From NCBI GenBank assembly GCA_023247445.1, contig JAHFGL010000004.1, positions 1,520 through 65,519 on the forward strand: a stretch of 64,000 nucleotides of DNA, given 5' to 3'. How positions within the stretch are numbered: the stretch's first letter is position 1; each line of letters opens with the position of its first letter. A program made the translations under genes and the position numbers. The notes below the pieces were generated by a model, which saw only the letters and a program-made list of their open reading frames with translations, did no database searches and had not been told where the DNA came from. Positions 3,811 through 38,520 of the stretch are shown here, in pieces. Source of the stretch: Candidatus Omnitrophota bacterium. Lineage in GTDB: Bacteria; Omnitrophota; Gorgyraeia; Zapsychrales; Zapsychraceae.

Positions 3811-3970
3811 TTGTCATGCCTGAATGTTTTTATCAGGCATCCAGTCTTACCTCGTTTAGATTCCCGCCATTGCTTTTCTCTAAAATGAAGGTAAAGCAAT
3901 GACGGTACCAACTTCCTCTAAATTATTTTAAAGGTAAGTTGGTGCCGCTTAAAGCATGCGGGAATGACAA
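3811..3970. repeat. MITE-like palindromic element with termini TTGTCAT...ATGACAA and inner inverted repeat ATTCCCGC...GCGGGAAT; contains hairpins atgcctga/tcaggcat and ggtaccaactt/aagttggtgcc
   Basis: Seen directly in sequence between convergent genes. The 26-bp 3' end ccgcttaaagcatgcgggaatgacaa recurs identically at 30665..30690. Confidence 0.55.
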
Positions 3971-4011
3971 GCTTTTACCATTTTTTGGATAACTCCGAGT
4001 CTTTTGCTATC

Positions 4012-5700
4012 TTACAAATTTTTAATTTTAAAAATATCTTCAGCCCTGGCCAGCGCCAGATCAATATGTCCTACGATGTTCTCTTGCCCAATGCGTTCCA
4101 CAATTCCTGATTGTTTAAGTGTCATAAGAAGATTTGAATTAACTCCTGATAGAATAAGTGTTGTCTTGCTCTTCTTTAATCTGTGGAAAAGATCTTCCAA
4201 AACCCGCAGACCCGTCGCATCAATAATGGGAACATAACGCATCCGCAAAATAAGTATTTGGGGTGGTCTTTCAAATTCACGCAGCGTATCTTTAAATTTT
4301 TCCGCTGCGCCAAAAAAGAAGGGTCCATAAATTTCATAAACTTCAACCCCTGACGGAACATTGCGTTTGGAGATAGCGTTGGGATCATCTGATTCGTCAT
4401 CTTCTGCCCCAATCGATTTTGTTAGCGCATTAACTTCAGTGACTTCCACCATCCGTTTCATAAAAAGAAATGCGGCAAGAACAACACCTACTTCAATGGC
4501 GACAGTTAAATCAACAAGAACGGTCAAAGAAAAGGTGATAAGCAGTACCGCAATATCACTTTTCGTACTACGAAAAAGTTTTATAAAGGTATGCCATTCG
4601 CTCATGTTGTAGGCAACTGTAATTAAGATCCCTGCGAGTGTCGCCATGGGAATTAAGGCCGCCCATTTTCCAAAAAATAAAAATATAAGAAGAAGTGTTA
4701 TGGCATGGATGATTCCTGCCACAGGCGTTCGTCCACCATTTTTAATATTGGTAGCCGTGCGTGCAATAGCTCCTGTTGCAGGAATTCCGCCAAATATAGG
4801 AGACGCAATGTTGGCTATTCCTTGCGCAATTAATTCCATGTTGGAACGGTGCCGTCGGCCAGTCATCCCATCAGCGACAACCGCGGAGAGAAGAGATTCA
4901 ATTCCTGCGAGTAATGCAATTGTTAGCGCTGGCGATAACAATTTAGAAAATAAATCAATGTTTAAAGGAAATGAAAATGGTAGATGGGGCATTGGTAACG
5001 TGCTGGGAACTTGACCAAATCTACTTCCAATGGTTTCAATGGGTAAATGTAATAATTGTGTTATTCCCGTTGTTAAGATTATGGCAATGAGTGTTCCTGG
5101 CAACTTTTGGGTCACCCGCGGCCAAAACATAATAATGAGCACCGTCAATATTCCTAGGCCGAAGGCATCAAAATTAATGGATGGTAGATTTTGTAAGTAG
5201 GCTAACCATTTGGCGAGAAAGTGTTCTGGGGTGTGTGTTAACGTCAATCCTAAAAAATCACGGATTTGTGTTGTGAAAATAATTAAGGCAATCCCACTGG
5301 TGAATCCAACGGTAACAGGATAAGGAATAAATTTGATCACATCACCCATGCGGGCGGCCCCTAATATAATAAGGAAGATCCCCGCCATAAAAGTGGCGGT
5401 GGCGAGGCCTTCATACCCATATTGTTGAACGATGTTATAAACAATAACGATGAATGCACCGGTGGGGCCGCCAATTTGTACGCGGCTGCCGCTAAAGGCA
5501 GAGATCAAAAATCCAGCAACAATGGCCGTGTAAATTCCTTGTTCAGGTTTAACTCCGGAGGCGATGGCGAAGGCAATTGATAGCGGAAGGGCAACAATGC
5601 CAACAATAATTCCAGCGATTAAATCGTGGGAGAAAGTTTTTGCAGAGTAACCTTCTTTGATTGCCGTTATTAATTTTGGTTCAAATGTTTTAGTGTGCAT
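4012..5700 (-). CDS. SulP-family inorganic anion transporter with C-terminal STAS domain
   Basis: Sulfate-transporter N-terminal motif GIYTAIVAGFL..GGPTGA. Multi-TM core. STAS-like C-terminus ILILRMRYVPIIDATGLRVLEDL. Confidence 0.85.
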   Translation of the reverse strand: MHTKTFEPKLITAIKEGYSAKTFSHDLIAGIIVGIVALPLSIAFAIASGVKPEQGIYTAIVAGFLISAFSGSRVQIGGPTGAFIVIVYNIVQQYGYEGLATATFMAGIFLIILGAARMGDVIKFIPYPVTVGFTSGIALIIFTTQIRDFLGLTLTHTPEHFLAKWLAYLQNLPSINFDAFGLGILTVLIIMFWPRVTQKLPGTLIAIILTTGITQLLHLPIETIGSRFGQVPSTLPMPHLPFSFPLNIDLFSKLLSPALTIALLAGIESLLSAVVADGMTGRRHRSNMELIAQGIANIASPIFGGIPATGAIARTATNIKNGGRTPVAGIIHAITLLLIFLFFGKWAALIPMATLAGILITVAYNMSEWHTFIKLFRSTKSDIAVLLITFSLTVLVDLTVAIEVGVVLAAFLFMKRMVEVTEVNALTKSIGAEDDESDDPNAISKRNVPSGVEVYEIYGPFFFGAAEKFKDTLREFERPPQILILRMRYVPIIDATGLRVLEDLFHRLKKSKTTLILSGVNSNLLMTLKQSGIVERIGQENIVGHIDLALARAEDIFKIKNL

Positions 5701-9176: not shown

Positions 9177-9576
9177 GTTAACCGGAACAATTGTTCATAT
9201 CGAATCCTCTGAGCACATGTCGATGGTTGATGTTGATGTCAAAGGGGATATTTTTAGTTCCATTGTTTTGGAAACGCCAGAAACGGCGAGCTATTTAAAA
9301 GTTGGCAGGGCTGTTACGCTGATGTTTAAAGAAACAGAAGTGTCGATTGGGAAGAATCTCAGCGGGCAAATTAGTTTGCGCAATAGATTTGGCGCCGTCA
9401 TCCGCAGCATCGAAGCTTCGGGCATCTTAGCTAAAGTTCTTCTTGATTATCAAAGTGTGCAAATTGTTTCGGTCATCTCAGCACGTTCTGCCGTTAAACT
9501 CAATTTAAAAAAAGGTGATTCTGTGGAATGGTTAGTTAAGACCAATGAAGTTTCGCTGTTAACAGAGAAGGGTTAA
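9166..9576 (+). CDS. tandem Mop (molbindin/TOBE) domain molybdate-binding protein
   Basis: 136 aa, consistent with two approx 68-aa Mop repeats. Sits between modA and modB. Confidence 0.65.
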   Translation: MMNKLTGTIVHIESSEHMSMVDVDVKGDIFSSIVLETPETASYLKVGRAVTLMFKETEVSIGKNLSGQISLRNRFGAVIRSIEASGILAKVLLDYQSVQIVSVISARSAVKLNLKKGDSVEWLVKTNEVSLLTEKG

Positions 9577-10248
9577 ATGCTCAACGATTTACAGCCACTT
9601 TTTTTGACGTTCGAACTGGCCGCGATTACAACGCTAATCCTCGTTGTGCTGGGCATTCCGTTGGCCTATTGGATCGCCTTTTCAAAAAGTAAATTAAAAT
9701 ACATTGTTGAACCGCTTGTCAGTATGCCGCTTGTCTTGCCGCCGACTGTTTTAGGTTTTTATATCTTACTTGCCTTTAGTCCAAAATATTTTCTTGGACA
9801 TTATTTGGAATCGACCTTCGACATTCGAATTGCGTTTAGCTTTGTGGGACTTGTGATTGGTTCGGTCTTTTTTAGTCTTCCGTTTATGGTTAATCCCATT
9901 AAGTCAGGATTTGAAAATTTTCCAGTTTCCTTAATTGAAGCTTCGTACGTTTTGGGAAAATCAAAATGGGAAACTTTAATCAAAGTTATTCTGCCCAATA
10001 TTAAACCGGCGCTTTTTGCGGGATTCGTCATGGCCTTTGCGCATACAATCGGAGAGTTCGGTGTTGTTCTTATGGTTGGCGGCAATATTCCTGGAGAAAC
10101 AAGGGTGGCGTCGATTGCGATCTTTAGCGAAGTTGAAGCGCTTAATTACGACAAGGCTAATTTTTATTCCTTGATTCTTGTGGCGATTTCATTTTGTATT
10201 TTGTTTGGTTTCTATTATTTCAACAGAAAATCGGTAAAGATATTTTAA
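9577..10248 (+). CDS. modB: molybdate ABC transporter permease
   Basis: ABC permease EAA-like loop EASYVLGKSKWETLIKVILP. Five to six TM segments. Confidence 0.85.
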   Translation: MLNDLQPLFLTFELAAITTLILVVLGIPLAYWIAFSKSKLKYIVEPLVSMPLVLPPTVLGFYILLAFSPKYFLGHYLESTFDIRIAFSFVGLVIGSVFFSLPFMVNPIKSGFENFPVSLIEASYVLGKSKWETLIKVILPNIKPALFAGFVMAFAHTIGEFGVVLMVGGNIPGETRVASIAIFSEVEALNYDKANFYSLILVAISFCILFGFYYFNRKSVKIF

Positions 10249-10249
10249 T

Positions 10250-11131
10250 ATGATAAAACTTCATTTTAAAAAGATGATGCACACATCCCAGGGGCAAGAG
10301 TGGCTCGATGTTGATTTAAAAGTCGAGAAGGGAGGCTTTTCTACGTTTTTTGGCGAATCCGGAGCTGGGAAGACGACGCTACTGCGCATTGTCGCTGGAT
10401 TAACCGATCCAGCCGAAGGATATATTGAAGTCGATGGTGAAGTTTGGTTTGATAGTAAGCGGAAGATTAATCTTCCTGTTCAACAAAGAAAGGTTGGATT
10501 TGTTTTTCAGGACTACAGTCTCTTCCCTAATATGACAGTTCGCGAGAATATTCGATATGCGTTAGCTGACAAAAATCAGGAAAATATTATTGATGGGTGG
10601 TTAGCCGCGATGGATTTAAAAGGATTAGAACACGAGCGTCCACAAAAAATATCGGGAGGACAAAAGCAAAGGGTGGCTTTGGTTCGCGCGCTTGTCAGTA
10701 GTCCCAAAATTTTATTATTAGATGAGCCGTTGTCTGCTTTAGATGTCAACCTACGTTTAAAACTTCAGGATGAAATTCTTAAAATTTATCAAAAGACGAA
10801 GATCACAACGATCCTGGTGAGCCACGATTTGTCGGAGGTCTTCAAATTGTCGCAACGGGTTTTGGTTTTAGAACAAGGCAAGATTGTCAAATCCGGTCAA
10901 CCGCACGAAGTGTTCAGCAATCAAAATTTAAGTGGAAAGTTTAAGTTTGTAGGAACGATTGTTGATATCCAAAAAGATGCGATCCTCTCTATAATAACGG
11001 TTCAGATTGGAAATAATTTAACAAAAGTGGTGGCAACCGATGAAGAGTTGAAAGATTTAAAGGTAGGGGATAAAGTGGTCGTTGCTTCAAAGGCATTTAA
11101 CCCGCTTTTGATGAAATATGACGGTCGTTAA
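10250..11131 (+). CDS. modC: molybdate ABC transporter ATP-binding protein with C-terminal TOBE/Mop domain
   Basis: Walker A GESGAGKTT, signature ISGGQKQRVAL, Walker B LLLDEP. C-terminal approx 70 aa resemble a TOBE fold. Confidence 0.85.
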   Translation: MIKLHFKKMMHTSQGQEWLDVDLKVEKGGFSTFFGESGAGKTTLLRIVAGLTDPAEGYIEVDGEVWFDSKRKINLPVQQRKVGFVFQDYSLFPNMTVRENIRYALADKNQENIIDGWLAAMDLKGLEHERPQKISGGQKQRVALVRALVSSPKILLLDEPLSALDVNLRLKLQDEILKIYQKTKITTILVSHDLSEVFKLSQRVLVLEQGKIVKSGQPHEVFSNQNLSGKFKFVGTIVDIQKDAILSIITVQIGNNLTKVVATDEELKDLKVGDKVVVASKAFNPLLMKYDGR

Positions 11132-14951: not shown

Positions 14952-16706
14952 ATGAACATTGGATCATTTAAATTTTTGGAAAATAAGATTGTGCTACGTT
15001 TTAACCTGCGTATCTGTGAAACGGCGGAAGAACTCTTGGAGAGTTCTTTGTTTAAAGAAGTGCTCACAAGATCGCTTGATGAATTGTCTCAGCGCAATTC
15101 CTTTCTTCTTAATATTTTTGACGGTCACAAAACTGACGACCAGCAAATTAATGATTTAATAAAAACATTTCAATTCTTATCAAAAATGCCAGGGACGCTG
15201 GTTCCTAACGTCGTTAAAGGTTCACAGCGGTTCTTGAAAGATCCGCATTTGCTTAATGATTTTGTTGAGTACTTATACAATTATTGGCGTAGATATGATC
15301 GTTTTCTTATTTGTGATTCAACGCAGAATGATTTAGATAAAAGTTCTTACCGTACGTTTAATGCAAGCGTCGGAGAGTTGACCAATTTAATTCGTGGGGT
15401 TTACCGTGATATTCAAGAGAATATTATCGGACATCATCCGCGTATTTATCGACAGGTTAGCGCCGGTGCTGAAGTTGCGACGATTTCAATCGACAAGCAA
15501 ATTACGTTTCCAAGCGCCAATTACAATAAGCTCAACAAAGTCCCGATGATTCGTCAGGTATTATTACATCCACCGCTAATTCTTAATCCACCAATGAATA
15601 AACGATCAGGCAAGTTCCAGCGGATTCCCACGAATCCACTAGATGTGGTTGATATTAATAGAGAAGAGTGGCTGTGCTATCCGGCCAAAGTTGGAGAACT
15701 CGTTATTTTAATTTATTTCCACAATAAATTCTTGGATCTTGGGTTTTCGCTGTGCAACTTATTTCAATTAGCGGAAGATGAAGATTTAAACAAAAAACCC
15801 GATGCCGTTTATGTGTTTGGTGTGGCTCCGGGCTCCTTAAATCAATTTGGTGATTTTCCGACGGTTTTTTACGATGATGAAGCCAATGACCTTTTGGTTG
15901 GCGCCGTGCCTAATGACAATCAATTTGGTTATTTTGGATATTTAAAGAAAATGGTTTTGACCCTGCACAATATTATAATGATGAAAAAGGGAAGACTTCC
16001 TTTTCATGGCGCGTTGGTGCGTATTATTTTAAAAGGCAACCGTGATGTAACCATTTTATTTATTGGTGATACAGGAGCCGGAAAGTCCGAGACGCTCGAA
16101 GCCTTCCGCGAGCTTGGTTATGATAAGATTCAAGACATTATTATCATTGCTGATGACATGGGGTCGCTTGATATCGACGGCGATGGCAACATCATTGGAT
16201 ATGGAACAGAAATCGGCGCATTCTTACGACTTGATGATTTGCAGCCAGGATATGCGCTGGGCCAAATCGACCGCGCGATTATTATGAGCGCCAATCAAGT
16301 CAATGCCCGCATCATTTTGCCGGTTACTTCCTATGACAATGTCATTAAGGGCCGCAAGATCGATTATATTTTATACGCCAACAACTATGACCAAATTGAT
16401 GACGAACATCCGATTATTGAACGCGTGACGGATGTCGAAAAAGCTTTGAATATTTTCCGCGAAGGAACGGTTATGAGTAAGGGAACCACAACCACAACCG
16501 GTCTGGTTCATTCCTATTTTGCCAATGTCTTTGGCCCACCGCAGTACAAGGAAATTCACGAAGGGCTTGCGCATAAATTTTTTAATGCTTTTTTTAAGAA
16601 TGGCGTTTTTGTCGGACAGATGCGCACCCGTCTAGGATTAGTCGGCGCGGAACGTGAAGGCCCTATTGAAGCCGCTAAAGAATTATTAGAAGTTTTGCAG
16701 AAATAA
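14952..16706 (+). CDS. HprK-related P-loop kinase domain protein with approx 370-aa N-terminal extension of unknown function
   Basis: Walker A FIGDTGAGKSETLEAFRELGY closely resembles the HPr kinase/phosphorylase C-terminal domain G(D/E)SG(V/A)GKSE. Good RBS aggag. Confidence 0.55.
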   Translation: MNIGSFKFLENKIVLRFNLRICETAEELLESSLFKEVLTRSLDELSQRNSFLLNIFDGHKTDDQQINDLIKTFQFLSKMPGTLVPNVVKGSQRFLKDPHLLNDFVEYLYNYWRRYDRFLICDSTQNDLDKSSYRTFNASVGELTNLIRGVYRDIQENIIGHHPRIYRQVSAGAEVATISIDKQITFPSANYNKLNKVPMIRQVLLHPPLILNPPMNKRSGKFQRIPTNPLDVVDINREEWLCYPAKVGELVILIYFHNKFLDLGFSLCNLFQLAEDEDLNKKPDAVYVFGVAPGSLNQFGDFPTVFYDDEANDLLVGAVPNDNQFGYFGYLKKMVLTLHNIIMMKKGRLPFHGALVRIILKGNRDVTILFIGDTGAGKSETLEAFRELGYDKIQDIIIIADDMGSLDIDGDGNIIGYGTEIGAFLRLDDLQPGYALGQIDRAIIMSANQVNARIILPVTSYDNVIKGRKIDYILYANNYDQIDDEHPIIERVTDVEKALNIFREGTVMSKGTTTTTGLVHSYFANVFGPPQYKEIHEGLAHKFFNAFFKNGVFVGQMRTRLGLVGAEREGPIEAAKELLEVLQK

Positions 16707-16872
16707 TTCTTTACTATATTTTTTATTTAGTGCTAGAATACCAACAGATTGAAGGTCTTAGTACTTCATAAGTTTGTTCTTCCTCACATCCGGCAAAAAT
16801 AGTTGTAACAAATCCTGCACATCTTGGTTGAGCAAGGTTTTAAAAATTGCATAACTTGAAATAAGGAAAGCA

Positions 16873-17910
16873 ATGAACCCAGCCAATCAACCAAACAACA
16901 ATCACACCCCTGCCAATGAAGTCGAACACCAAAAACTCGAACATCTCCTCAGCATAGAAGAAGGTCTTAATTCCATCTCGCATATCGATCGGTTAATTGA
17001 TTTTATTGTTCAAAAGACAAGCCTCGTGCTTCAAGCCCAGCGATGTTCTCTGATGTTCCTTGATGAAAACACACAGGAACTCTGTATTAAAGGACACTGT
17101 GGTTTAGGTGAGGAAATCGTCCGGCAGAGCCGTATCAAATTGGGGAGTCCAATCGCTGGGCTTGTCGCTGAGGATGGAAAACCGATTCTGGTCACCGACA
17201 TCGAGCGCGATTATCGTTTTGCCAGAAAAAGTAAAAAATATTATCTGGGGAAATCATTTATCTGTGTGCCGATTCAATTAAAGAAACGTATGATGGGGGT
17301 TATTAATGTTGCGGATAAACATTCACAAGAGGGAGATGTTTTTACCGCGTTTGATTTAAAGATTCTTTCAATGATTGCCCGGCAAGTCGCAACATCGATT
17401 GAAGTGGCTAAATTGTATCGTGAAATAAATTATTTAAATATCTTAGACCCCATCACCAATCTTTTTAATTATCGATATTTTGTTAAGAGTCTTGATCAAG
17501 AGATCAGTCGGCTGCAACGTTATTCGGGATCTTTATGTTTACTCTTAATTGACATCGATGATTTTAAAGCCTACAACGATCTTTTTGGTTATCGAGAAGG
17601 TAACGCTTTACTTAAACAAATTGGACAGGTTCTCAACGAGAATTTCCGAGATGCTGATATTGCCTGTCGTTACGCGGGGGATGAATTTGCGATTATCCTC
17701 CCTGAGACGCGGGTCGATGAAGCGCAAACCGTGGTGGAGAAAATCAATCGGATCGTTGGGGACCTGTCGCTTCAAAAGAAAATTACCTTTAGCGCCGGCA
17801 TCGCCAAGTATGCCGCCGGCATGCATCGATATGATTTGATTATGAAAGCCGAAGCCGCGCTTTTTGATGCCAAGCGCGAAGGCAAAAACCGCGTTTTAAG
17901 CTACGATTAA
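16873..17910 (+). CDS. GAF-GGDEF diguanylate cyclase (variant AGDEF active-site motif, RxxD I-site present)
   Basis: GAF N-terminal half. GGDEF domain with ...FRDADIACRYAGDEFAIIL. Confidence 0.8.
   Translation: MNPANQPNNNHTPANEVEHQKLEHLLSIEEGLNSISHIDRLIDFIVQKTSLVLQAQRCSLMFLDENTQELCIKGHCGLGEEIVRQSRIKLGSPIAGLVAEDGKPILVTDIERDYRFARKSKKYYLGKSFICVPIQLKKRMMGVINVADKHSQEGDVFTAFDLKILSMIARQVATSIEVAKLYREINYLNILDPITNLFNYRYFVKSLDQEISRLQRYSGSLCLLLIDIDDFKAYNDLFGYREGNALLKQIGQVLNENFRDADIACRYAGDEFAIILPETRVDEAQTVVEKINRIVGDLSLQKKITFSAGIAKYAAGMHRYDLIMKAEAALFDAKREGKNRVLSYD
17869..17910. repeat. 42-bp perfect direct repeat, copy A (3' end of GGDEF gene): gccaagcgcgaaggcaaaaaccgcgttttaagctacgattaa
   Basis: Identical 42-mer recurs at 19101..19142. 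Degenerate similarity continues approx 18 bp beyond. Confidence 0.9.
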
Positions 17911-17975
17911 CTCCTTTCCCAATTTATGCGCAACGAAATTTAATCAGCGTTAAAGAGCAGGGCCTCTACCAAAGG

Positions 17976-18036
17976 TTGACATCACTTTAAAGAATGCTAT
18001 ACTTGCACATGTAAGGTTATCCTTACACATGTTAGG
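17976..18036 (+). promoter_or_regulatory. sigma70-like promoter (TTGACA-16-TATACT) followed by operator-like palindrome ACATGTAAGG-ttat-CCTTACACATGT upstream of the wHTH-MNT gene
   Basis: Hexamers at 17976..17981 and 17998..18003. Inverted repeat at 18007..18032, directly read from sequence. Confidence 0.5.
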
Positions 18037-18044
18037 TAAACCAT

Positions 18045-18677
18045 ATGATCTCATCGCCATTTCAAATACATGAAGTCATTGATTCACCCTCTAAGGTGGC
18101 TATTTTAAGGGTTTTAGCTTCGCGTAAGGGTCTTAAGGCCACGGGTCGAGAGATAGCCAAGTTAGCTGGCTTTTCTGTGCCATCAACGCACGACTCCTTA
18201 AAAGCTCTACATGAACGTAATATTCTAAATCTTGAAATTATCGGTAAACAGCATATTTACTCGTTAAATGAAGACGATCGTCTGGTCCAGAAAATTATCC
18301 GGCCTATGTTTGCGGCCGAAGGGGGGATCAAGGATGAGATATGCAATTTTCTTTTGACTGAAATCAAGAAAGCTGGAATTAAACGAGAGATTGTTTCCTT
18401 GATCCTTTATGGAAGTGCTCAAAGGGGACTGGCCGTGAAAAATAGTGATGTTGATGTGGCCGTTATTGTTGATAGATTGGCCAATGTCAGTAAGGTGGAG
18501 GACATTTTTATCTCAACTATTCAGCCAAGGTTTAAAGCTTACTTTGGTGTCCAGCTTGATCCTTATGTGAAAGCAGCGTCAGAATTTCGCGATTTCTTAA
18601 AGAAGAATTTGCCCCCAGTTTCAACGCTGATTAAATCCTATTCTGTATTAAATGGCAAAGAACCTTTGGAGGTTTAA
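18045..18677 (+). CDS. nucleotidyltransferase (minimal NTase, MNT-type) with N-terminal winged-HTH
   Basis: NTase motif ILYGSAQRGLAVKNSDVDVAVIV (GS...DxD). N-terminal wHTH VAILRVLASRKG...IAKLAGFSVPSTHDSL. Translationally coupled to the next gene via TAAATG. Confidence 0.7.
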   Translation: MISSPFQIHEVIDSPSKVAILRVLASRKGLKATGREIAKLAGFSVPSTHDSLKALHERNILNLEIIGKQHIYSLNEDDRLVQKIIRPMFAAEGGIKDEICNFLLTEIKKAGIKREIVSLILYGSAQRGLAVKNSDVDVAVIVDRLANVSKVEDIFISTIQPRFKAYFGVQLDPYVKAASEFRDFLKKNLPPVSTLIKSYSVLNGKEPLEV

Positions 18678-19085
18678 ATGACAGCACGTGATGCAAAGGT
18701 TAGAGAAGAAAGTAAATCGGCCGCCGGAGATTATTTGAAGAAGGCCGCCGATAATTATGACCAAATGCTGGCCGCCTTTCATGCCTCAAATTGGAACGCC
18801 GCAGCGACACTGGCTGTTCAATGTGCAATTTCCTCTGCCGATGCCATTTGTGTTCACGAAAAAGGGATTCGTTCTATTTCCCAAGATCATTTAGATGTCT
18901 GTGATTTGGTTTCAAAGCTCTCTCTTAATGGCGCCGATGAAAAATCCAAGCAGCTTCGTAAAGTGATTGCGCGAAAAAACATGGTTCAATACGAATGTCG
19001 CAGTGTTTACAAGGCTGATGCTGATGAAATGGTAAAAGTTACGACGAGATTTTATCAGTGGGTCAATGAGAAGATGGGGAAGTAA
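18678..19085 (+). CDS. HEPN domain protein (partner of MNT; toxin-antitoxin-like pair)
   Basis: 135 aa, helical. Candidate Rx5H motif IRSISQDH. Obligate pairing with the upstream NTase. Confidence 0.6.
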   Translation: MTARDAKVREESKSAAGDYLKKAADNYDQMLAAFHASNWNAAATLAVQCAISSADAICVHEKGIRSISQDHLDVCDLVSKLSLNGADEKSKQLRKVIARKNMVQYECRSVYKADADEMVKVTTRFYQWVNEKMGK

Positions 19086-19100
19086 TTAACCCCAAAGAAG

Positions 19101-19142
19101 GCCAAGCGCGAAGGCAAAAACCGCGTTTTAAGCTACGATTAA
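19101..19142. repeat. 42-bp perfect direct repeat, copy B
   Basis: Identical to 17869..17910. Lies immediately downstream of the HEPN gene stop. Confidence 0.9.
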
Positions 19143-19186
19143 TTTCTCTCTTTCCAATTTCCCGACCTTTATTTATAATCTCATCT

Positions 19187-20218
19187 ATGCCCACCGCGAT
19201 TGTTTCCTCTAACCTAAAAAACTCTGCTGCTTACGCAACGTTATTAAATCAGGTCAAAAAAACTTTGCTCGAGGGGCAGGCGCGCATTGAAGAAGCGCGC
19301 GTTCGCATTTATTGGGAAACTGGAAAACATATTCAAACGCATATTCTCAAATATTCTGATCGTGCGGAATATGGGGCGGAGATTTTTAAGCGATTGTCGA
19401 AAGATTTGAATGTTGATTCAAGCGTTCTGCAGCGTTGTGTTCAATTTGTTAAAGTTTATCCTAAGTTACCAATTCTCGGTGGCCACCGAGAATTCAGTTG
19501 GTCACATTATCTTAAGCTCATTACGATTCCTGATAAAAAAGAGCGGCTTTTGCTTGAAAAGAATATCACTCAAAAAGGCTGGACGGCAGATGAACTCGCC
19601 GCACGGCTTAAGGAAGAACACCAAAAAATTTTAATCCCTAAGCACTCAGCACTAGGCACTAAGCCACTAATTCCACTTCGCGGCGCGCCCTACACCTACC
19701 AGGTGATTGACCGTCCAAATATTAAAACCGGAAAATCGAGTTTGCGATTAGATTTAGGTTTTGGTGTGTTTCATAAAGATCCGGCGCTCGTCGCTTCCTT
19801 TAATAAAGGCGACATCGTGGAGTCGCGTCCAAAGGAGGATGCGTTTAAACTTTACAAAACAAATCGAACGGCCAAAGATCTGTACACCTATTGGGCCGAG
19901 ATTGAGCGCGTCATTGACGGCGATACCGTTAAAGTGCGATTTGATTTAGGATTTAATGTCGAGGTGCGCGAGACTTTGCGTTTGCGCGGGCTCGACTGTC
20001 CAGAAATGGACACGAAGGAAGGCCAAGCGGCGAAAACCTTTGTCCAATCGCATTTGAAAGAAGAGCAATTCGTCCTCGTCCGCTCCAGCCGGTCCGATAA
20101 ATACGACAGATATCTTGCCGATATTTTTATTCCACAGAGCGAAGAACCGAATCCATCGAAGGATTTATATCTGAATAATTTATTGTTGCAGAATGGTTAC
20201 GCGAAACGGATGAAATAA
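19187..20218 (+). CDS. nuclease with DUF1016-N-like N-terminal region fused to C-terminal staphylococcal-nuclease (SNase/thermonuclease) domain
   Basis: N-terminal RIYWETGKHI...RLSKDL...VQFVKVYP resembles the YhcG/DUF1016 N-terminal region. C-terminal DGDTVKVRFDLGF...LRLRGLDCPEM is the SNase Ca-binding core. Start codon uncertain. Confidence 0.6.
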   Translation: MPTAIVSSNLKNSAAYATLLNQVKKTLLEGQARIEEARVRIYWETGKHIQTHILKYSDRAEYGAEIFKRLSKDLNVDSSVLQRCVQFVKVYPKLPILGGHREFSWSHYLKLITIPDKKERLLLEKNITQKGWTADELAARLKEEHQKILIPKHSALGTKPLIPLRGAPYTYQVIDRPNIKTGKSSLRLDLGFGVFHKDPALVASFNKGDIVESRPKEDAFKLYKTNRTAKDLYTYWAEIERVIDGDTVKVRFDLGFNVEVRETLRLRGLDCPEMDTKEGQAAKTFVQSHLKEEQFVLVRSSRSDKYDRYLADIFIPQSEEPNPSKDLYLNNLLLQNGYAKRMK

Positions 20219-20306
20219 TTAGGGACACGTACTTTTCTTTAAACGTAAATAGACCCCGGAAAGTTTATCAATTACCCAAACTTTCAACAATGTAAATGAG
20301 GTTACC

Positions 20307-21119
20307 ATGAATGAAGAATTGAGTGCTTGGAGTATCGTTAAGAAGTTAACGTGGCACGACGCGTTTCACGTTTTGGGTGTTATCGCATTGGCTTGGTTGG
20401 GTTCTTTTTTAATCCGTTGGGTTATCCGTCAATCGGCGGAAAAGGCTCCGGCTTATCTTCGGCTTTTTATGCTGCGGCTGTTGCCGATTTCTCGTCTATT
20501 GATTGCAATCGCGGCCGTTGTCATCATTGTGCCTATTCTCATTGAGCCGAAGTTTCAGAATGTCATCGCGCTTGTGATGAGCGTCGCTGTTGCGTTGGCC
20601 TTTGCGTTCAAAGATTATGCGGGCTGCTTAGCAGCTGGTTTTATTACCGTCTTAGAAAATACTTATCAACCTGGGGATTGGGTCGAGATTGATGGCACCT
20701 ATGGAGAAGTTAAATCCATCGGTCTGCGGGCGCTGTTCCTAGTTACGGCGGATGACACCGAGGTTTCGATTCCCCATTCCCGTCTTTGGTCAACGAGCAT
20801 CTTTAATGCCTCAAGCGGTAACCGAAGTCTTTTGTGCGTTACGAATTTTTATCTGCATCCGGATCATGATGCGGCGTTGGTGCGTAGTCGTTTAACCGAA
20901 ATAGCGCAGGCCAGTTCTTATCGTAAGTCCGATACCCCTGTTGTGGTTATCGTCCTCGAGAAACCCTGGGGAACTCATTATCGGCTTAAGGCTTATGTGA
21001 AAGAGAGCCGGGAACAGTTTTTGTTTATTACAGATTTGACAGTTAAGGGGAAGGCAATGATTCGTTCCCTGGGTATCCGCTTTGCTCAAGCGACTTATGC
21101 CGAGACAAGTTTTAAATAA
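20307..21119 (+). CDS. small-conductance mechanosensitive channel (MscS family)
   Basis: Three TM helices, then MscS beta-domain motif GDWVEIDGTYGEVKSIGLRALFLVTADDTEVSIPHS. Confidence 0.8.
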   Translation: MNEELSAWSIVKKLTWHDAFHVLGVIALAWLGSFLIRWVIRQSAEKAPAYLRLFMLRLLPISRLLIAIAAVVIIVPILIEPKFQNVIALVMSVAVALAFAFKDYAGCLAAGFITVLENTYQPGDWVEIDGTYGEVKSIGLRALFLVTADDTEVSIPHSRLWSTSIFNASSGNRSLLCVTNFYLHPDHDAALVRSRLTEIAQASSYRKSDTPVVVIVLEKPWGTHYRLKAYVKESREQFLFITDLTVKGKAMIRSLGIRFAQATYAETSFK

Positions 21120-21276
21120 TTACAAGTAATTGTCGACCACACACCTGAACCTGATTTTTAAAATTCTTGAGTCCCCAATATTCGTGTGGTAATGTATTTT
21201 CAATTAATATCCGATCAATCCCCCGATCTCGATCCCCCATCGGATTCAATCAGTCCAAAAGAAAGGGGAAAAGTTT

Positions 21277-21990
21277 ATGTCTACAGAAATGAATCTCACC
21301 AAAATCGCCGTCTTTAAGGGAAAGCAAGTTAGAAAGATCATTCATCATAATGAATGGTGGTTTTCAATTAATGACATTATTGAAGTTCTCACAGGGACAG
21401 AAAGACCGCGTAAATATTGGAATGATTTAAAGGTGAAGTTAATAAAGGAGGGTTATGTTGAAGTGTCCGAGAAAATCGGACAACTGAAATTGAAGGCTTC
21501 TGATGGGAAGGAATATTTAACAGATTGTGCAAATACAGAAACTATTTTTCGTATAGTTCAAGCAGTTCCCTCCCCCAAAGCCGAACCTTTCAAACGCTGG
21601 TTAGCCAGGGTTGGTTATGAGCGGATTCAGGAGATTGAAGATCCTGAGTTAGCGATGAAACGCATGCGGGCTATTTATAAGGCTAAGGGCTACTCTGATG
21701 ACTGGATCGAAAAACGTGTGCGTGGCATCGCGATTCGTGAAGAGTTAACGGATGAATGGAATAAGCGCGGTGTAGAAAATCCACGAGAGTACGCGATTTT
21801 AACAGCCGAGATTTCTAAAGCGGCTTTTGGAATGACGCCTTCTGAGTATAAGAAATACAAGGGACTGGACAGGCAAAATTTGCGCGACCACATGACTGAT
21901 TTGGAACTGATTTTTTCTATGCTGGGAGAAGCGTCCACAACAAAGATTGCCCGCGGACGAGATATGAAAGGGTTTGAGCCGAATAAGTAA
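21277..21990 (+). CDS. Bro-N domain protein (DinD-like, DNA-damage-inducible protein D family). The frame continues past an in-frame TAA (21988..21990) for 44 more sense codons, to 22125
   Basis: Bro-N N-terminal block KQVRKIIHHNEWWFSINDIIEVL. The post-stop in-frame translation AAVDGGSIAGNARKELEQKSGEKVITQENF looks like genuine protein. Confidence 0.7.
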   Translation: MSTEMNLTKIAVFKGKQVRKIIHHNEWWFSINDIIEVLTGTERPRKYWNDLKVKLIKEGYVEVSEKIGQLKLKASDGKEYLTDCANTETIFRIVQAVPSPKAEPFKRWLARVGYERIQEIEDPELAMKRMRAIYKAKGYSDDWIEKRVRGIAIREELTDEWNKRGVENPREYAILTAEISKAAFGMTPSEYKKYKGLDRQNLRDHMTDLELIFSMLGEASTTKIARGRDMKGFEPNK

Positions 21991-22142
21991 GCTGCTGTTG
22001 ACGGCGGGTCGATCGCTGGAAACGCTAGAAAAGAATTGGAACAAAAAAGCGGCGAGAAAGTTATTACTCAAGAAAATTTTCGCCAAATTCCTCAAAAGAA
22101 AAAGCAAATAAAAATAAAGAGATAGAGGCTCCCTTACATACC

Positions 22143-22805
22143 ATGCCCACACTCGACACAACCGAAAAATTTAAGAAATATATCTTTTGGATCTTCCGCG
22201 CTCTCTTGATCGTCACCGCGATCATCGCCGTCTTTTCCCATCATTGGAAAGAAGTCATGTATCTTTTATTTATTTTATTCCTGACGTTTCTGCCCAGGAT
22301 CATCGAGGGAAAGGTCGGGCTTGATTATCCCAGCGAGATTGAGATCATCATCCTTTTGTTTATCATAGCCTCGATTTATTTGGGCGAGATGCATTCCTTT
22401 TACGAAAAGTTCCCGTGGTGGGACGTGCTTTTACACTCGATTTCCGCGGTCATTATCGGTGGCATCGGGTTTTCGATTGTTTTTATTCTCAACAAGAGTA
22501 AGAAAATAGTTTTTAAATTAAGTCCCGGATTTGTGTGTTTGTTTGCGTTTTGTTTTGCGGTCGCCTTTGGTGCGCTGTGGGAAATTTTTGAATATATGAT
22601 GGATCAAGCCTTTGGCCTTAATATGCAAAAGTCAGGGCTTGTTGATACGATGGAAGACTTGATTGTCGATTCCTTGGGCGCGCTAGTTTTTGCTGTGTTT
22701 GGATATTTTCATTTAAAACGCAAGATTCATATGTTTGACTGGTTAGCCAGAAAATTCTTTAAGCTCAATCCGGAGTTAAAAGAGACATCACAAGAGAATT
22801 TATAA
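22143..22805 (+). CDS. hypothetical integral membrane protein (possibly YjdF/DUF2238-like)
   Basis: Five to six TM segments. Motif GALWEIFEY. Family assignment is tentative. Confidence 0.4.
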   Translation: MPTLDTTEKFKKYIFWIFRALLIVTAIIAVFSHHWKEVMYLLFILFLTFLPRIIEGKVGLDYPSEIEIIILLFIIASIYLGEMHSFYEKFPWWDVLLHSISAVIIGGIGFSIVFILNKSKKIVFKLSPGFVCLFAFCFAVAFGALWEIFEYMMDQAFGLNMQKSGLVDTMEDLIVDSLGALVFAVFGYFHLKRKIHMFDWLARKFFKLNPELKETSQENL

Positions 22806-22913
22806 TTGCCATAACCTGGCCGTTGTGATAAAAAATATCCAGCTCAATTCCCCACCGTTTTAGTTTATCCCCCAACTAAACTATCCAATAAATCATTAAT
22901 CAAAGGGGGAAGT

Positions 22914-23480
22914 ATGTCTACAGATAGGAAACAGAAAAAACAATCTAATAAAGGATTGGTTCATTTCGTTTCAAAGGAAATTATAGAAAGTAAGATTTAT
23001 TTAATACGTGGACGCAAAGTTATGTTTGATCATGATTTGGCAAAATTATACGAGGTTCCCACGCATCGATTAAATGAACAAGTCAAAAGAAATCCTGAGC
23101 GATTTCCAAAAGATTTTGTGTTTCAATTAAGCAACGAAGAATATAAAGCTTTGAGCTCGCATTTTGCGAGCTCAAAAAAGGGCTCCGGCGGACGTAGATA
23201 TTTACCGTTTGTTTTTACAGAACAGGGGGTAGCCATGCTTTCAAGCGTTTTAAAAAGTAAGAAAGCAGCTTTAGTTAACGTTGCTATCATGCGAGTTTTT
23301 GTAAAGATTCGAGAATTATTAACAACACATAAGAATTTGGCGGATAAATTAAAAGAGCTTGCCACGCGCATTGACAATCACGATGAACAAATTCACTCAA
23401 TATTTGACGCCATTCGACAGTTGATAAAAGAAGAAGAAAAGCCCAGGCGCGGGATTGGGTTTCATGTGAAGTATGATTAG
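22914..23480 (+). CDS. ORF6N-domain protein (KilA-N-related DNA-binding, phage antirepressor-like)
   Basis: ORF6N signature IRGRKVMFDHDLAKLYEVPTHRLNEQVKRNPERFP...GGRRYLPFVFTEQGVAMLSSVL. Confidence 0.75.
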   Translation: MSTDRKQKKQSNKGLVHFVSKEIIESKIYLIRGRKVMFDHDLAKLYEVPTHRLNEQVKRNPERFPKDFVFQLSNEEYKALSSHFASSKKGSGGRRYLPFVFTEQGVAMLSSVLKSKKAALVNVAIMRVFVKIRELLTTHKNLADKLKELATRIDNHDEQIHSIFDAIRQLIKEEEKPRRGIGFHVKYD

Positions 23481-23504
23481 TTTTTTAATAGAAGATGAAT
23501 TTAA

Positions 23505-23616
23505 ATTTTTGAGGTTCCAATTTGGAACCTCAAAGGTTAGTATCTTGATGTGCCAATTTGGCACCTCAAGTTGAATTTTAAAATTGGAAGTCACAGCTTG
23601 TGACTTCCAATTTTAT
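23505..23616 (+). terminator. array of three consecutive hairpins (ttgaggttccaatttggaacctcaa; gtgccaatttggcac; aaattggaagtcacagcttgtgacttccaattt), the last followed by a T-rich tract
   Basis: Palindromes read directly. Shared CCAATTTGG/AATTGG cores. Located between the ORF6N gene and ychF. Confidence 0.5.
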
Positions 23617-23693
23617 TGCTTGTTTCTTCCCCCCGTCAACGTTAGAATAACCCCTGTATTTATTTAGTTAAACACACAAGTTAAGGAATCATC

Positions 23694-24767
23694 ATGGAAA
23701 TTGGAATTGTAGGTTTGCCTAACGTCGGGAAATCAACCCTTTTTAACGCGCTAACCGGCGCCGCAGTCGCAGCTGAAAACTTTCCGTTTACAACCATTGA
23801 ACCAAACGTTGGGATTGTTCCACTACCTGACCCGCGTTTATATGTTTTAGCTGAAAAATTTGAGAGTCAAAAGATCACGCCTTCCGGCATTCGATTTGTG
23901 GATATCGCGGGGCTCGTCAAAGGGGCCAGCCAAGGCGAAGGATTGGGCAATCAGTTTTTAGGCCACATCCGCGCCGTTGATGCCATTGCCCACGTGGTGC
24001 GCTGTTTTCGCGATGATAATGTTGTCAACGTCATGGATCAGCTGGATCCAGTTAATGCCGCTGATATTATTGAAACAGAATTGTTACTTGCCGATTTACA
24101 GCAAGCGCAAAAAGCCCTTGAGAAATTAAAAAAGAATGCCAAGTCCGGCGCCAAAGAAGATAAAGAAAAGGTCGCCGTGATGGAAGAGATTCTAAAAGCT
24201 TTTGAAGAAGGCAAGTCAGCCCGCAGCCAATCAATTCCTAAAGAATTTTTAGAAGAATATCAATTTCTAACGGCCAAGCCGCTTTTATATGTGGCCAACA
24301 CCGATGAAGGCCCTGCCGATCCCAAATTACTTGGACCATTACAGGTTCGTGCAGAGAAAGAAAATGCAAAGATCGTTGTCCTTTCGACAAAATTAGAAGC
24401 CGAAATTGTTCAACTTCCCGAAGAAGAAAGAGCGGTTTATTATGAATCAGCGGGAATCACTTCCCCTGGACTGGCAACACTCGCTAAAGCCGGACGAGAA
24501 TTATTAAATCAAGTTTGTTTTTTTACAGCCGGGGAAAAAGAGACCCGCGCCTGGCTTATTAATAAAGGAACAAAGGCCGCGAAGGCGGCTGGAAAAATTC
24601 ATACGGACATTGAACGTGGATTTATCCGCGCGGAAGTTTACAAATATGATGATTTGGTCAAGCTAGGAACTTACAAGGCGATTCAAGAAAAAGGACTCGT
24701 GGCGCTTGAAGGAAAAGATTACGAAATAAAAGAAGGCGATGTTGTTTATTTTAGGTTTAGTGTCTAG
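23694..24767 (+). CDS. ychF: ribosome-binding ATPase YchF (Obg-like ATPase)
   Basis: G1 motif GIVGLPNVGKSTLFNALT. Central coiled-coil insert. C-terminal TGS domain. 357 aa. Confidence 0.9.
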   Translation: MEIGIVGLPNVGKSTLFNALTGAAVAAENFPFTTIEPNVGIVPLPDPRLYVLAEKFESQKITPSGIRFVDIAGLVKGASQGEGLGNQFLGHIRAVDAIAHVVRCFRDDNVVNVMDQLDPVNAADIIETELLLADLQQAQKALEKLKKNAKSGAKEDKEKVAVMEEILKAFEEGKSARSQSIPKEFLEEYQFLTAKPLLYVANTDEGPADPKLLGPLQVRAEKENAKIVVLSTKLEAEIVQLPEEERAVYYESAGITSPGLATLAKAGRELLNQVCFFTAGEKETRAWLINKGTKAAKAAGKIHTDIERGFIRAEVYKYDDLVKLGTYKAIQEKGLVALEGKDYEIKEGDVVYFRFSV

Positions 24768-24826: not shown

Positions 24827-24985
24827 CAATAAACAAATACCAAATGCCAAACAATATACAAATACACAAATCCCAATGGCCAAAAGTCACATTCAGTTTT
24901 GTAGCTTGTTAATTGGAGTTTTTTTGGTATTTATGATTTGGGATTTGAATATTGTCTGTGATTTGGTGCTTGGGATTTTTAATTT
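24827..24985. repeat. palindromic intergenic repeat, copy 1 (arms caaat-ccaaataccaaa / tttggtatttgtgatttgg around a core aatcccaatggccaaaa...agttttgtag.ttgttaattg)
   Basis: Shares a colinear match of approx 120 bp with 29727..29850. Confidence 0.6.
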
Positions 24986-25002: not shown

Positions 25003-25419
25003 ATGATTAAAGCAGAATTGGGAAGACAGCTCATGATCAACGTTGATAACACCGTTGGATCGCTGGCGGAGGTTACCAGTGTCGTCTCGGCATCAAGCAT
25101 TAATCAAATCGCTATTTGTGCGTATTCCGTTGGCAAGAAAGTTGCGATTATGTGCGTGACGGAAGACAATAATGCCGCGAAGAAGCTGTTGGAAGATCAG
25201 GGGTTTCTTGTTCAGGAAGAAGAGGTTGTTTTGTTAACGATTGATAATAAGGCCGGATCTCTACAGCGCGTCACCGATAAAATCGCTGAGGCGGGTGTTG
25301 ATTTGAAATTAATCTACGGCAGTGTTTCCCCCGGACAAGAGTCGGCGCGCATTGTTATTATTGCTGAAAATAATTTAGATGTAATTATGGTCATTAAAAC
25401 AGAACTTGAGCGCAGCTAA
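25003..25419 (+). CDS. tandem ACT-domain protein
   Basis: Two approx 65-aa beta-alpha-beta-beta-alpha-beta-like halves with Gly after the first strand (VDNTVGSLAEV; IDNKAGSLQRV). RBS gaggag. Confidence 0.6.
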   Translation: MIKAELGRQLMINVDNTVGSLAEVTSVVSASSINQIAICAYSVGKKVAIMCVTEDNNAAKKLLEDQGFLVQEEEVVLLTIDNKAGSLQRVTDKIAEAGVDLKLIYGSVSPGQESARIVIIAENNLDVIMVIKTELERS

Positions 25420-29726: not shown

Positions 29727-29850
29727 CCAATACACAAATTCCAAATACCAAACAATATGCAAATTCAAAATCCCAATGGCCAAAATTAACTTTTAGTTTT
29801 GTAGTTTGTTAATTGCAATTTGTTTGGTATTTGTGATTTGGATATTTTAA
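29727..29850. repeat. palindromic intergenic repeat, copy 2 (same family as 24827..24985), between ABC ATPase and permease genes
   Basis: Direct sequence comparison of the two copies. Confidence 0.6.
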
Positions 29851-30637: not shown

Positions 30638-30690
30638 AGTCGATGCGGGCATCCAATTAGATTCCCGCTTAAAGCATGCGGGAATGACAA
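30638..30690. repeat. short derivative of the 3811..3970 element (cgatgcgggcatcc...attcccgcttaaagcatgcgggaatgacaa); looks like the two ends joined with the internal approx 110 bp missing
   Basis: 26-bp identity with 3945..3970. The inverted repeat ATTCCCGC-N10-GCGGGAAT is intact. Confidence 0.55.
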
Positions 30691-30707
30691 TCTTGGGATA
30701 ATTTCTA

Positions 30708-37249: not shown

Positions 37250-37318
37250 TATTATGTTTTATCTTTTAGCCATCGATACATTCTAGGAATATAAATTAAG
37301 AAAATATAAAGGTTAAAA

Positions 37319-38455: not shown

Positions 38456-38486
38456 TAGGAAAAATATTAGATTTTGGGTTTAAAAT

Positions 38487-38520
38487 AAAGCAGATTACTT
38501 AAATGTAATCTGCTTTATTG
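38487..38520 (+). terminator. rho-independent-like hairpin aaagcagattac-ttaaat-gtaatctgcttt
   Basis: 10-12 bp perfect stem. Near-identical hairpin recurs after paralog 4 (41129..41168). Confidence 0.55.

Follow-up and report, generated by a model that had tools for sequence, protein, structure and literature searches.

The window analysed here is a 64,000-nt stretch of a Candidatus Omnitrophota genome (contig JAHFGL010000004.1, positions 1,520 to 65,519; all coordinates below count from the first letter of the stretch). It contains a two-gene cassette that was inserted behind a gene for a GAF-GGDEF protein. The cassette encodes a winged helix-turn-helix (wHTH) domain fused to a minimal nucleotidyltransferase (MNT), followed by a HEPN-domain protein, and it is bracketed by two identical 42-bp direct repeats, the first of which is the 3' end of the GAF-GGDEF gene itself. 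The 1.19 kb between the repeats is an autonomous expression cassette that extends from its own promoter to the HEPN stop codon. Related cassettes occur at many different sites in Omnitrophota, and direct repeats bracket them far more often than control windows. We give about an even chance to the explanation that the cassette was gained by homology-guided additive integration through host recombination, with displacement of the resident gene end.

The repeat pair and its support in independent assemblies

The target gene and the two repeat copies are located as follows.

16873..17910, + strand: GAF-GGDEF gene, 345 aa, the target whose 3' end is duplicated (Pfam GGDEF 1.7e-37, GAF 2.5e-15)
17869-17910, + strand: left repeat copy, perfect part (13 codons and TAA), with a degenerate extension at 17911-17925 (CTCCTTTCCCAATTT) (self-comparison, BLAST, shuffles)
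19101-19142, + strand: right repeat copy, perfect part, non-coding, with a degenerate extension at 19143-19160 (TTTCTCTCTTTCCAATTT) (self-comparison, BLAST, shuffles)

The 42-mer (GCCAAGCGCGAAGGCAAAAACCGCGTTTTAAGCTACGATTAA) is present in exactly two copies in the 64 kb, on the same strand and with a spacing of 1232 nt, at the places where an initial annotation of this DNA had reported perfect repeats around the wHTH-MNT/HEPN unit. A third copy was not found in the window at up to three mismatches or by relaxed BLAST, and the 42-mer was matched in 0 of 100 shuffles. The left copy consists of the last 13 codons and the stop codon of the GAF-GGDEF gene, which is intact with a duplicated 3' end, so that the stop is preserved as had been noted. 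The similarity that had been described beyond the repeat is real but modest. Positions 17869-17925 and 19101-19160 are 91.8% identical over 61 columns with 3 gaps (BLAST), and the part that follows the stop codon (CTC-CTTTCCCAATTT against CTCTCTTT-CCAATTT) was reached by 36-67 of 5000 shuffles, or about 1%. The filled left junction reads CTACGATTAA on one side and CTCCTTTCCCAATTTATGCG on the other. Homologs of the target protein are named as Omnitrophota diguanylate cyclases; the signature motif of the gene is AGDEF (RYAGDEF, 17660-17680) rather than GGDEF or GGEEF.

Whether the second copy might be an assembly artefact had been raised in the initial annotation. Both junctions are present in an independent ENA assembly (ERZ27280176, k=141), on two contigs. 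One of them (L001) corresponds to window positions 16617-18420 at 100% identity and runs from unique sequence through the left copy into the cassette, and the other (L002) corresponds to positions 18438-20648 with one mismatch and spans the right copy. As these k=141 contigs cross each junction, the repeat is no artefact. A Logan contig of 1250 nt (SRR14366772) carries both cassette genes at offsets that place it at about 17881-19130; by arithmetic from its length and these offsets, 1250 nt equals 30 + 1190 + 30, as expected for a k=31 unitig between 42-nt repeats. Three further, short Logan contigs end within the HEPN or the MNT gene and say nothing on the flanking repeats.

Genes and control elements of the cassette

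The promoter, operator palindrome, wHTH-MNT gene and translationally coupled HEPN gene that had been proposed for the cassette are all present.

17976..18003, + strand: cassette promoter, TTGACA-16-TATACT (11/12 matches; TG before the -10 hexamer)
18006..18040, + strand: putative operator and predicted wHTH target, TGTAAGGTTATCCTTACA, with the inverted repeat TGTAAGG-N4-CCTTACA (18010-18027) and then a repeated half-site, ATGTTAGGTAAA
18045..18677, + strand: wHTH (ArsR/MarR-like) and MntA-like minimal nucleotidyltransferase, 210 aa (Pfam, NCBIfam, PADLOC, AlphaFold2 (AF2))
18678..19085, + strand: HEPN-domain protein, 135 aa (Pfam HEPN PF05168 3.6e-5; AF2)

The position of the promoter is kept in nearly all aligned cassettes of the family, and the family consensus of the putative operator is TGTAAGGTTAACCTTACATATGTTAGGT. 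The MNT protein matches NTP_transf_2 (2.2e-7) and Polbeta (1.7e-6) in Pfam, the PADLOC model PDC-M05A (1.2e-11) and, in NCBIfam, an ArsR/SmtB HTH model weakly (3e-4) and the MntA equivalog at 7e-6 and 25.9 bits, below the cutoff of 60. Its nucleotidyltransferase motif is GSAQRGLAVKNSDVDV, and residues G123, S124, D135 and D137 are invariant in the family. The AF2 model (pLDDT 80) has an N-terminal half that is a winged helix and matches ArsR/CadC/MarR regulators in the PDB; the best PDB match of the C-terminal half is a toxin-antitoxin entry, 7bxo chain A, and another entry of the same system bears the name MntA-HepT.

The ATG of the HEPN gene abuts the MNT stop codon, with GGAGG 5 nt upstream of the ATG. 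The AF2 model of the HEPN protein (pLDDT 87, pTM 0.81) finds the HEPN proteins 1wol, 1ufb, 3o10 (sacsin), 2hsb and 1o3u as its top PDB folds (TM 0.6-0.75), HEPN-T proteins being nearest and HepT chains ranking lower. A search of the PDB by sequence with the HEPN profile gave no match. The protein also matches no PADLOC model, so that one PDC-M05 component, the MNT, is seen. It belongs to the Pfam class PF05168 and not to DUF86, and its invariant motif is KNxxQYExR (K100-N101-x-x-Q104-Y105-E106-x-R108). The Rx4-6H RNase motif was not found in the HEPN protein, whose conserved motif contains no histidine.

The pair had been called toxin-antitoxin-like, a description that stands as one of resemblance only. 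Shared with the type VII HepT/MntA systems are the operon of two genes, in which the nucleotidyltransferase precedes HEPN, the GS...DxD motif and the match to 7bxo chain A, whereas the cassette MNT carries an N-terminal wHTH domain and the HEPN protein is of the HEPN-T/PF05168 class without Rx4-6H. Because of this class, the missing motif and an MntA score below the cutoff, the pair resembles type VII without meeting its definition. MNT-linked HEPN proteins that lack Rx4-6H do exist and can still be toxic (PMC3710099). The wHTH domain is probably an autorepressor and the MNT an antitoxin-like partner; repression and toxin/antitoxin behaviour are what these domains would predict. A 14-nt exact inverted repeat (TTTAATCAGCGTTA) joins a site upstream of the promoter (17938-17951) to the 3' end of the MNT gene (18623-18636), and belongs to a longer pair of 41 nt with 73% complementarity.

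Relatives of the cassette in Omnitrophota

Scans of species-representative genomes and of Joint Genome Institute (JGI) metagenomes gave 120 loci, of which 97 have both MNT and HEPN (L numbers are used below where loci must be told apart). The family is well conserved, with 65-79% identity for MNT, 75-87% for HEPN and constant lengths across hundreds of Omnitrophota contigs. The neighbouring genes differ at almost all of the 97 loci, and the only recurrent context is gltX-tRNA-Gln(CTG). When flanks are aligned, the conserved stretch begins with the -35 box, about 75 nt upstream of the ATG, covers the operator and ends at the HEPN stop. Outside this span the family alignments show neither terminal repeats nor conserved ends, nor an attC-like shared imperfect palindrome at the cassette ends.

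The cassette itself encodes nothing that could move it. Between the repeats of the window there is no transposase, only the MNT and HEPN genes, and no inverted repeat pair was found at the cassette ends, the only long pair having one arm within the MNT gene. The window proteins that were scanned include no member of a recombinase family, and no integrase was seen next to bracketed cassettes elsewhere, where only L018 and L062 have an IS110-like gene.

Recurrent bracketing by direct repeats

Bracketing was counted as at least 25 identical bases shared between 300-nt flanks. By this measure 11 of the 62 unique cassettes that could be tested are tightly bracketed by direct repeats, compared with 3 of 339 control windows of equal size shifted by 1.8-3.6 kb (Fisher p = 1.3e-7). 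No repeat is present at 69 of 89 testable loci. The repeats have the following lengths and identities.

Window: 42 nt, 100%
L007/L057: 50 nt, 96%
L029/L087: 41 nt, 95%
L051: 30 nt, 100%
L052: 67 nt, 97%
L053: 88 nt, 86%
L058: 92 nt, 89%
L076: 49 nt, 88%
L081: 33 nt, 97%
L082: 127 nt, 93%
L086: 30 nt, 100%
L100/L101: 55 nt, 100%
L054: 17 nt, 100%
L039: 15 nt, 100%

The lengths thus range from 15 to 127 nt, and reach at least 292 nt in an array at a DedA gene, with no fixed length of duplication. A core shared by the repeats of different sites was not seen by inspection, no formal motif search having been made. The initial annotation had proposed an insertion with target duplication: the insertion and the duplicated GGDEF end stand, and the sense that the term has for transposons is unsupported for the family as a whole, given the absence of a transposase, an integrase or a terminal repeat and a repeat length that varies from 15 to more than 290 nt. 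The claim of mobility is strengthened by the differing contexts and by unrelated bracketing repeats above the control rate.

Most repeats are the 3' end of an upstream gene or the 5' end of a downstream gene, and some are intergenic or beside a tRNA; the flanking genes are intact. Upstream genes with a duplicated 3' end encode the GGDEF protein, a 1113-aa protein, an aminotransferase and a 175-aa protein. The 30-nt repeat of L086 holds the stop codon of the upstream gene together with the ribosome-binding site (RBS) and start of a downstream epimerase gene, both genes being whole. A fragment of the anchor gene, displaced directly beyond the cargo while the anchor is intact, is found in the window and at L029, L052, L053, L058, L082, L086, L030 and L003. 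The start of the right copy varies between 4 nt inside the HEPN stop and 82 nt past it, and a wider scan found bracketed units with one or two extra genes at L008, L010/L011, L018, L062, L074, L102/L103 and L108.

Two of the three control matches, in L003 and L053, turned out to be repeat-bracketed cargo themselves, and the third (L029) lies within the gene for the 1113-aa protein, which has internal repeats. L003 carries, on the same contig as a family member, an unrelated or distantly related pair of wHTH-MNT (176 aa) and HEPN (153 aa) genes at 9442-10938, with a repeat of 73 nt (90%) that corresponds to the RBS and the opening 20 codons of the tag gene (methyladenine glycosylase) downstream. 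At L053 (6183-7751) a 422-aa secreted-looking protein is bracketed by a 77-nt repeat. Other cargo includes a PIN protein at L030 (2578-3632), where the repeat is the first 130 nt of recQ; BrnT/BrnA at L009 (7810-8555) and an HNH protein at L020 (8043-9174), each bracketed by a direct repeat; a DUF3800 protein at L081 (325-1284), where the repeat is an aminotransferase 3' end; and an AbiE-like pair at L004 (928-3306) with a repeat of 221 nt. The identities of these other cargo proteins were assigned by reading sequences and not by Pfam. Since PIN, BrnTA, HNH, DUF3800, AbiE-like, second MNT/HEPN and HTTM genes are bracketed likewise, the bracketing process is independent of the cargo.

Some repeats lie close to tRNA genes. 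At L010 (4694-4870), L028 (3153-3380) and L074 (3757-3893) the final 7-24 nt of tRNA-Gln contain the start of the repeat, which extends 70-177 nt downstream, and at L100 (5059-5217) the right copy is 19 nt from tRNA-Leu; no integrase was seen in the fetched flanks of these four loci. Short, GC-rich hairpins with ACGTTACACGTCCCC or GGGGACGTTTCTAC occur near the cassettes of L051 (820, 2224 and 2621), L065, L017 and L033, and look like repetitive extragenic palindromic (REP)-type repeats. At L051, L008 and L076 the apparent bracketing repeats may belong to this type and not be target duplications.

Origin of the repeat copies

The locus of the closest relative of the cassette (P0123, 79% identity; contigs L123 and L124) is the most informative one, an array in which three copies of the 3' part of a DedA-family gene stand around and between two different cargoes. 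Over L123 1-2174 and L124 1391-1682 it consists of a DedA end (copy 0), an HTTM/VKGC-like gene, a DedA fragment (copy 1) that measures about 410 nt and contains two stops, the MNT/HEPN pair and a further DedA fragment of about 290 nt (copy 2). Copies 1 and 2 differ with a proportion of synonymous differences (pS) of 0.73 and of nonsynonymous differences (pN) of 0.095 (pN/pS about 0.04), and copies 0 and 1 with a pS of 0.35 and a pN of 0.024 (pN/pS about 0.05). Because the differences are almost only synonymous, the copies come from different functional alleles: they diverged under strong purifying selection, as functional genes in different lineages, and were not duplicated in place and left to decay, a pattern that agrees with homology-guided integration or the displacement of a gene end.

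Further loci agree with this. The L029 repeat has five nucleotide differences over the Leu-Leu-Arg-Lys codons, none of which changes an amino acid, the L058 repeat has a pN/pS of 0.14, and either copy at L029, L052 and L058 would provide a plausible alternative C-terminus. At L053 the ratio between left and right copies is 1.05. The window has 42/42 identity in the coding part and three indels in the next 18 nt, a pattern that weakly favours two alleles over uniform decay (by our own estimate, about p = 0.03). Left and right copies of the aminotransferase end in three related genomes did not form separate clades, in what is a small sample. A diversity-generating retroelement, with a template/variable repeat pair at the 3' end of a gene, was also considered and rejected: there is no reverse transcriptase, and the mismatches at L082 and L053 are, by eye, not adenine-specific.

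Proposed homology-guided additive integration

In the reading that we prefer, the cassette would have come on DNA that also carried a copy of the GGDEF gene end, and host recombination would have added it through the homology between the two gene ends, either by a Campbell-type insertion-duplication of a small circle or by a one-sided, homology-facilitated illegitimate join. The new gene end would have stayed on the GGDEF gene, while the resident end and the nuclease promoter behind it would have been pushed downstream to become the right copy. That the cassette may be competent for excision, as had been suggested, is made plausible by the identical 42-bp repeats, which would let it loop out in circular form together with one repeat, and this circle could in turn integrate into any genome with the same gene end. 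The predicted empty site is GCGCTTTTTGAT, the 42-mer and TTTCTCTCTTTCCAATTTCCCG, and the predicted circle junction GGGGAAGTAATTAACCCCAAAGAAG, the 42-mer and CTCCTTTCCCAATTT.

Several points weigh against this reading. Homology guidance accounts for spread among orthologous sites but leaves the first arrival at each of many different sites unexplained, and the bracketed unit is often suspiciously tight round the cassette, which a model of random fragments does not predict. In model bacteria, homology as short as 15-42 bp supports recombination only inefficiently. The pooled pN/pS over seven shorter coding repeats is 0.40, a value close to that of in situ duplication with one decaying copy. As the window copies carry no substitutions, allelic and in situ origin cannot be told apart there, and the DedA array is the only locus that is decisive. 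Look-ups by exact protein (GGDEF, MNT, HEPN, nuclease and YchF) gave the filled arrangement only and no empty site, and the fetched contigs contained no circular form, be it a terminal overlap or a permuted cassette.

A broader proposal, which we make only tentatively, is that Omnitrophota have a general, integrase-free way of accreting small defence or toxin-antitoxin (TA) cassettes, each of which may carry a fragment of a host gene end as attachment homology, integrate additively through host recombination, displace the old end and be able to loop out again. The result would be integron-like arrays (gene, cargo B, gene-end fragment, cargo A, gene-end fragment) that need neither attC sites nor an integrase, with wHTH-MNT/HEPN as the top passenger.

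The island at the GGDEF 3' end

In the locus of the closest GGDEF ortholog (P0002, 75% identity), compared by its contig gene table, the GGDEF gene is separated by 92 nt from genes for YchF (357 aa) and an ACT protein (138 aa). In the window, the following features lie downstream of the cassette.

19151..19179, + strand: promoter-like site TTTCCA-17-TATAAT for the downstream nuclease gene, with its -35 in the degenerate part of the duplication
19187-20218, + strand: DUF1016_N-SNase nuclease (Pfam; PADLOC PDC-S02 9e-22)
20307-21119, + strand: MscS-like protein gene (Pfam)
21277-21990, + strand: Bro-N protein gene (Pfam; PADLOC PDC-S13 1e-105)
22143-22805, + strand: membrane protein gene, an island member
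22914-23480, + strand: ORF6N protein gene (Pfam; PADLOC PDC-S05 4e-60)
23481..23693, + strand: ORF6N-YchF spacer, the right-hand island edge, with three strong hairpins (z = -7.7)
23694-24767, + strand: YchF GTPase (Pfam; order, family and length as after P0002)
25003-25419, + strand: ACT-domain protein (Pfam; order, family and length as after P0002)

The cassette and the five genes at 19187-23480 are thus absent between GGDEF and YchF in the closest relative. Because P0002 directly precedes the YchF and ACT genes, the stretch 17911-23693 is extra relative to it, and YchF was probably the ancestral downstream neighbour of the GGDEF gene. The region from 17.9 to 23.7 kb looks like an inserted, defence-like island, three of whose genes (DUF1016_N-SNase, Bro-N and ORF6N) match PADLOC candidate defence families, and the cassette is the newest layer of this variable island grown at the GGDEF 3' end. 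The initial annotation had placed the insertion at a GGDEF/nuclease junction. The duplicated GGDEF end and the insertion are borne out, but the nuclease and four more genes are themselves island material. The empty site that it had proposed, with GGDEF directly before the nuclease, was probably not ancestral, since the nuclease is absent between GGDEF and YchF in the relative.

Two of the spacer hairpins share a CCAATTTGG core, with the palindromes TTCCAATTTGGAA and TGCCAATTTGGCA, and the third has a stem of 16 bp with a U-run behind it. The 9-mer TTCCAATTT is found at 19152, at the end of the right extension, and at 23605, and TTCCCAATTT ends the left extension at 17916, so that all three island junctions lie just 3' of CCAATTT. 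As a mark of a 4.4-kb island the 9-mer was rejected, for the window has 6 copies where 3.3 are expected, which is no enrichment. Counting the 18 nt that follow the right copy together with the 80 nt that precede YchF gives 98 nt, near the 92-nt spacer of the relative. Beyond the island, a 74-nt direct repeat (88% identity) occurs at 24868-24941 and 29768-29841, 4.9 kb apart, in the intergenic regions between YchF and ACT and between an ABC ATPase and an ABC-2 permease. The YchF-ACT spacer measures 236 nt in the window against 28 nt in the relative, and the 74-nt repeat may reflect a further bracketed insertion or a dispersed element of intergenic regions.

Alternative explanations

De novo target duplication at insertion, by which the copies would be born identical and diverge later, is a possible though rather unlikely origin of the repeats. 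It could occur without homology, by capture of linear or circular cassette DNA at a staggered double-strand break or by template switching in replication, or in trans, through a transposase that makes long and variable duplications. For the latter there is a precedent in IS1549 and IS1634, whose variable direct repeats of 8-514 bp arise by a mechanism reported as unknown (PMC2266710), and IS1634-family elements have been reported in Omnitrophota (bioRxiv 10.64898/2026.06.07.730766). Perfect repeats at four independent sites (window 42, L100 55, L051 30 and L086 30 nt), the lack of a common sequence among repeats on inspection and insertions at many unrelated sites are in keeping with such a process, as are the pooled pN/pS of 0.40, which fits one constrained and one decaying copy, and the left-against-right ratio at L053. 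Against it stands the DedA array, where a pN/pS of 0.04-0.05 with saturated synonymous sites is impossible for a non-functional duplicate made in situ. The exclusively synonymous differences over four codons at L029 also speak against it, as does the abrupt drop of identity at one side of many repeats, where even decay would be expected, and a transposase would find no terminal inverted repeats or conserved ends. For the window itself, de novo target duplication could still be the source of the pair.

An insertion at the 3' end of a gene that supplies a replacement end is what integrases classically leave behind. The repeats might accordingly be attL and attR attachment sites of a recombinase-less satellite, similar to a cis-mobilizable element (CIME), that a tyrosine or serine recombinase encoded elsewhere integrates and excises in trans. 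The tRNA-linked sites fit this, with gltX-tRNA-Gln as the commonest context, repeats that start in the tRNA-Gln end at L010, L028 and L074, and a tRNA-Leu gene 19 nt from the right copy of L100; so do the position of three island junctions 3' of CCAATTT and the palindromes TTCCAATTTGGAA and TGCCAATTTGGCA at the far island edge. We nevertheless regard site-specific recombination in trans as improbable. The sites have no common core, so one cassette family would need many integrases; repeats of 127 to more than 290 nt at 78-93% identity are unlike att cores; no integrase was found in the window proteins scanned or beside bracketed cassettes; and TTCCAATTT is not enriched.

It is scarcely credible that the cassette is a vertically inherited pair without mobility, bracketed after a tandem duplication of gene end plus cassette and deletion of the second cassette. 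The repeat-free state of 69 of 89 testable loci and the strong conservation of the pair (65-87% identity) would suit this, but contexts differ at nearly all loci, bracketing with the same geometry recurs at independent sites far above the control, the closest relative of the locus is without the cassette, and two precise steps would be needed at each site. A mis-join that created the second copy or misplaced the cassette, for which the identity of the two copies and the inability of a k=31 graph to separate A-R-B-R-C from an empty site plus a circle might be cited, has a practically negligible probability, as independent k=141 contigs cross each repeat copy with unique sequence on either side and the diverged copies at related loci cannot be assembly duplicates.

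Relation to known systems

With no transposase, integrase or element ends and a highly variable repeat length, membership of the cassette in the families of ordinary transposons, integron cassettes and integrase-type cassettes is ruled out. Like integrase elements at gene and tRNA 3' ends, it duplicates the target end, leaves the gene intact and accretes in tandem, but it has neither an integrase nor a conserved att core, and one family uses many targets. With IS1549 and IS1634 it has in common direct repeats of very variable length, but it lacks the transposase gene and the terminal inverted repeats that are part of those elements. Integron cassettes are also small, carry one operon each, are added serially at one site and commonly hold TA cargo; unlike them, the present cassette has its own promoter and lacks an attC-like structure, a shared site and intI.

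A similar layout is that of the displacement arrays, with orphan 3' fragments, of Rhs, contact-dependent inhibition (CDI) and type VI secretion system (T6SS) effector-immunity modules, for which homology-facilitated illegitimate recombination has been proposed and in which the copies within a genome come from different strains (PMC5361080). In both cases a module brings along a segment of homologous gene sequence, the former 3' end persists downstream and arrays grow by repetition, a layout shared by the DedA-HTTM-dedA'-MNT/HEPN-dedA'' array. By contrast, the anchors of the cassettes are ordinary housekeeping or signalling genes (GGDEF, DedA, aminotransferase, recQ, tag), to which the cargo bears no relation, and the anchor can be the 5' end of a downstream gene. 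Recombinase-independent excision between short repeats has been documented for unconventional circularizable structures (UCS) and the H47 island of E. coli (PMC5426353), which likewise have direct repeats around a segment without a recombinase gene. The cassettes differ from UCS in that the repeats are duplicated ends of neighbouring genes and the same cargo occurs with different repeats; circles were not observed among the fetched contigs.

MNT/HEPN modules, their mobility, displacement arrays, insertion-duplication and repeat-flanked segments without a recombinase are therefore already known. In the literature we found no description of a highly conserved, phylum-wide, promoter-to-stop wHTH-MNT/HEPN cassette bracketed by duplicated ends of neighbouring genes, nor of the same footprint for other defence or TA cargo in these genomes. 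MNT/HEPN modules are a horizontally mobile class, and such pairs have been called mobile for more than 15 years with no route known by which they move (PMC2701414). For Omnitrophota, a recent survey of 176 complete genomes describes a phenomenon of integration and variability whose mechanism it calls unresolved (bioRxiv 10.64898/2026.06.07.730766). The window and about 20 further bracketed loci provide a concrete and testable footprint of cassette gain. If host recombination is the route, the tightly packed genomes of an uncultivated phylum would be able to gain and shuffle defence genes while leaving operons undisturbed, and the displacement-array logic of Rhs/T6SS would extend to ordinary genes. 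Duplicates of gene ends about 1-3 kb apart would then serve as a search signature of recent gene gain in metagenome-assembled genomes.

Other features of the window

Nearly all long open reading frames of the window are on the + strand, the only plausible minus-strand genes being 4012-5700, 32400-33791 and 58156-58764. Four tandem paralogs at 36122-41168 have common 3' ends of about 90 nt that encode VPEP, a hydrophobic stretch and RRKK, a sequence that resembles a PEP-CTERM sorting signal. Near-identical hairpins that look like terminators stand behind two of the four, at 38482 and 41124. Three further tandem paralogs of 638-645 aa, 66-73% identical in DNA, lie at 52313-58152; the one that was scanned (52313-54229) has B12-binding and radical SAM domains. 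Finally, a 30-nt repeat (CCGCTTAAAGCATGCGGGAATGACAA) with a small hairpin inside is found at 3945-3974 and 30665-30694, 26.7 kb apart and with 97% identity.

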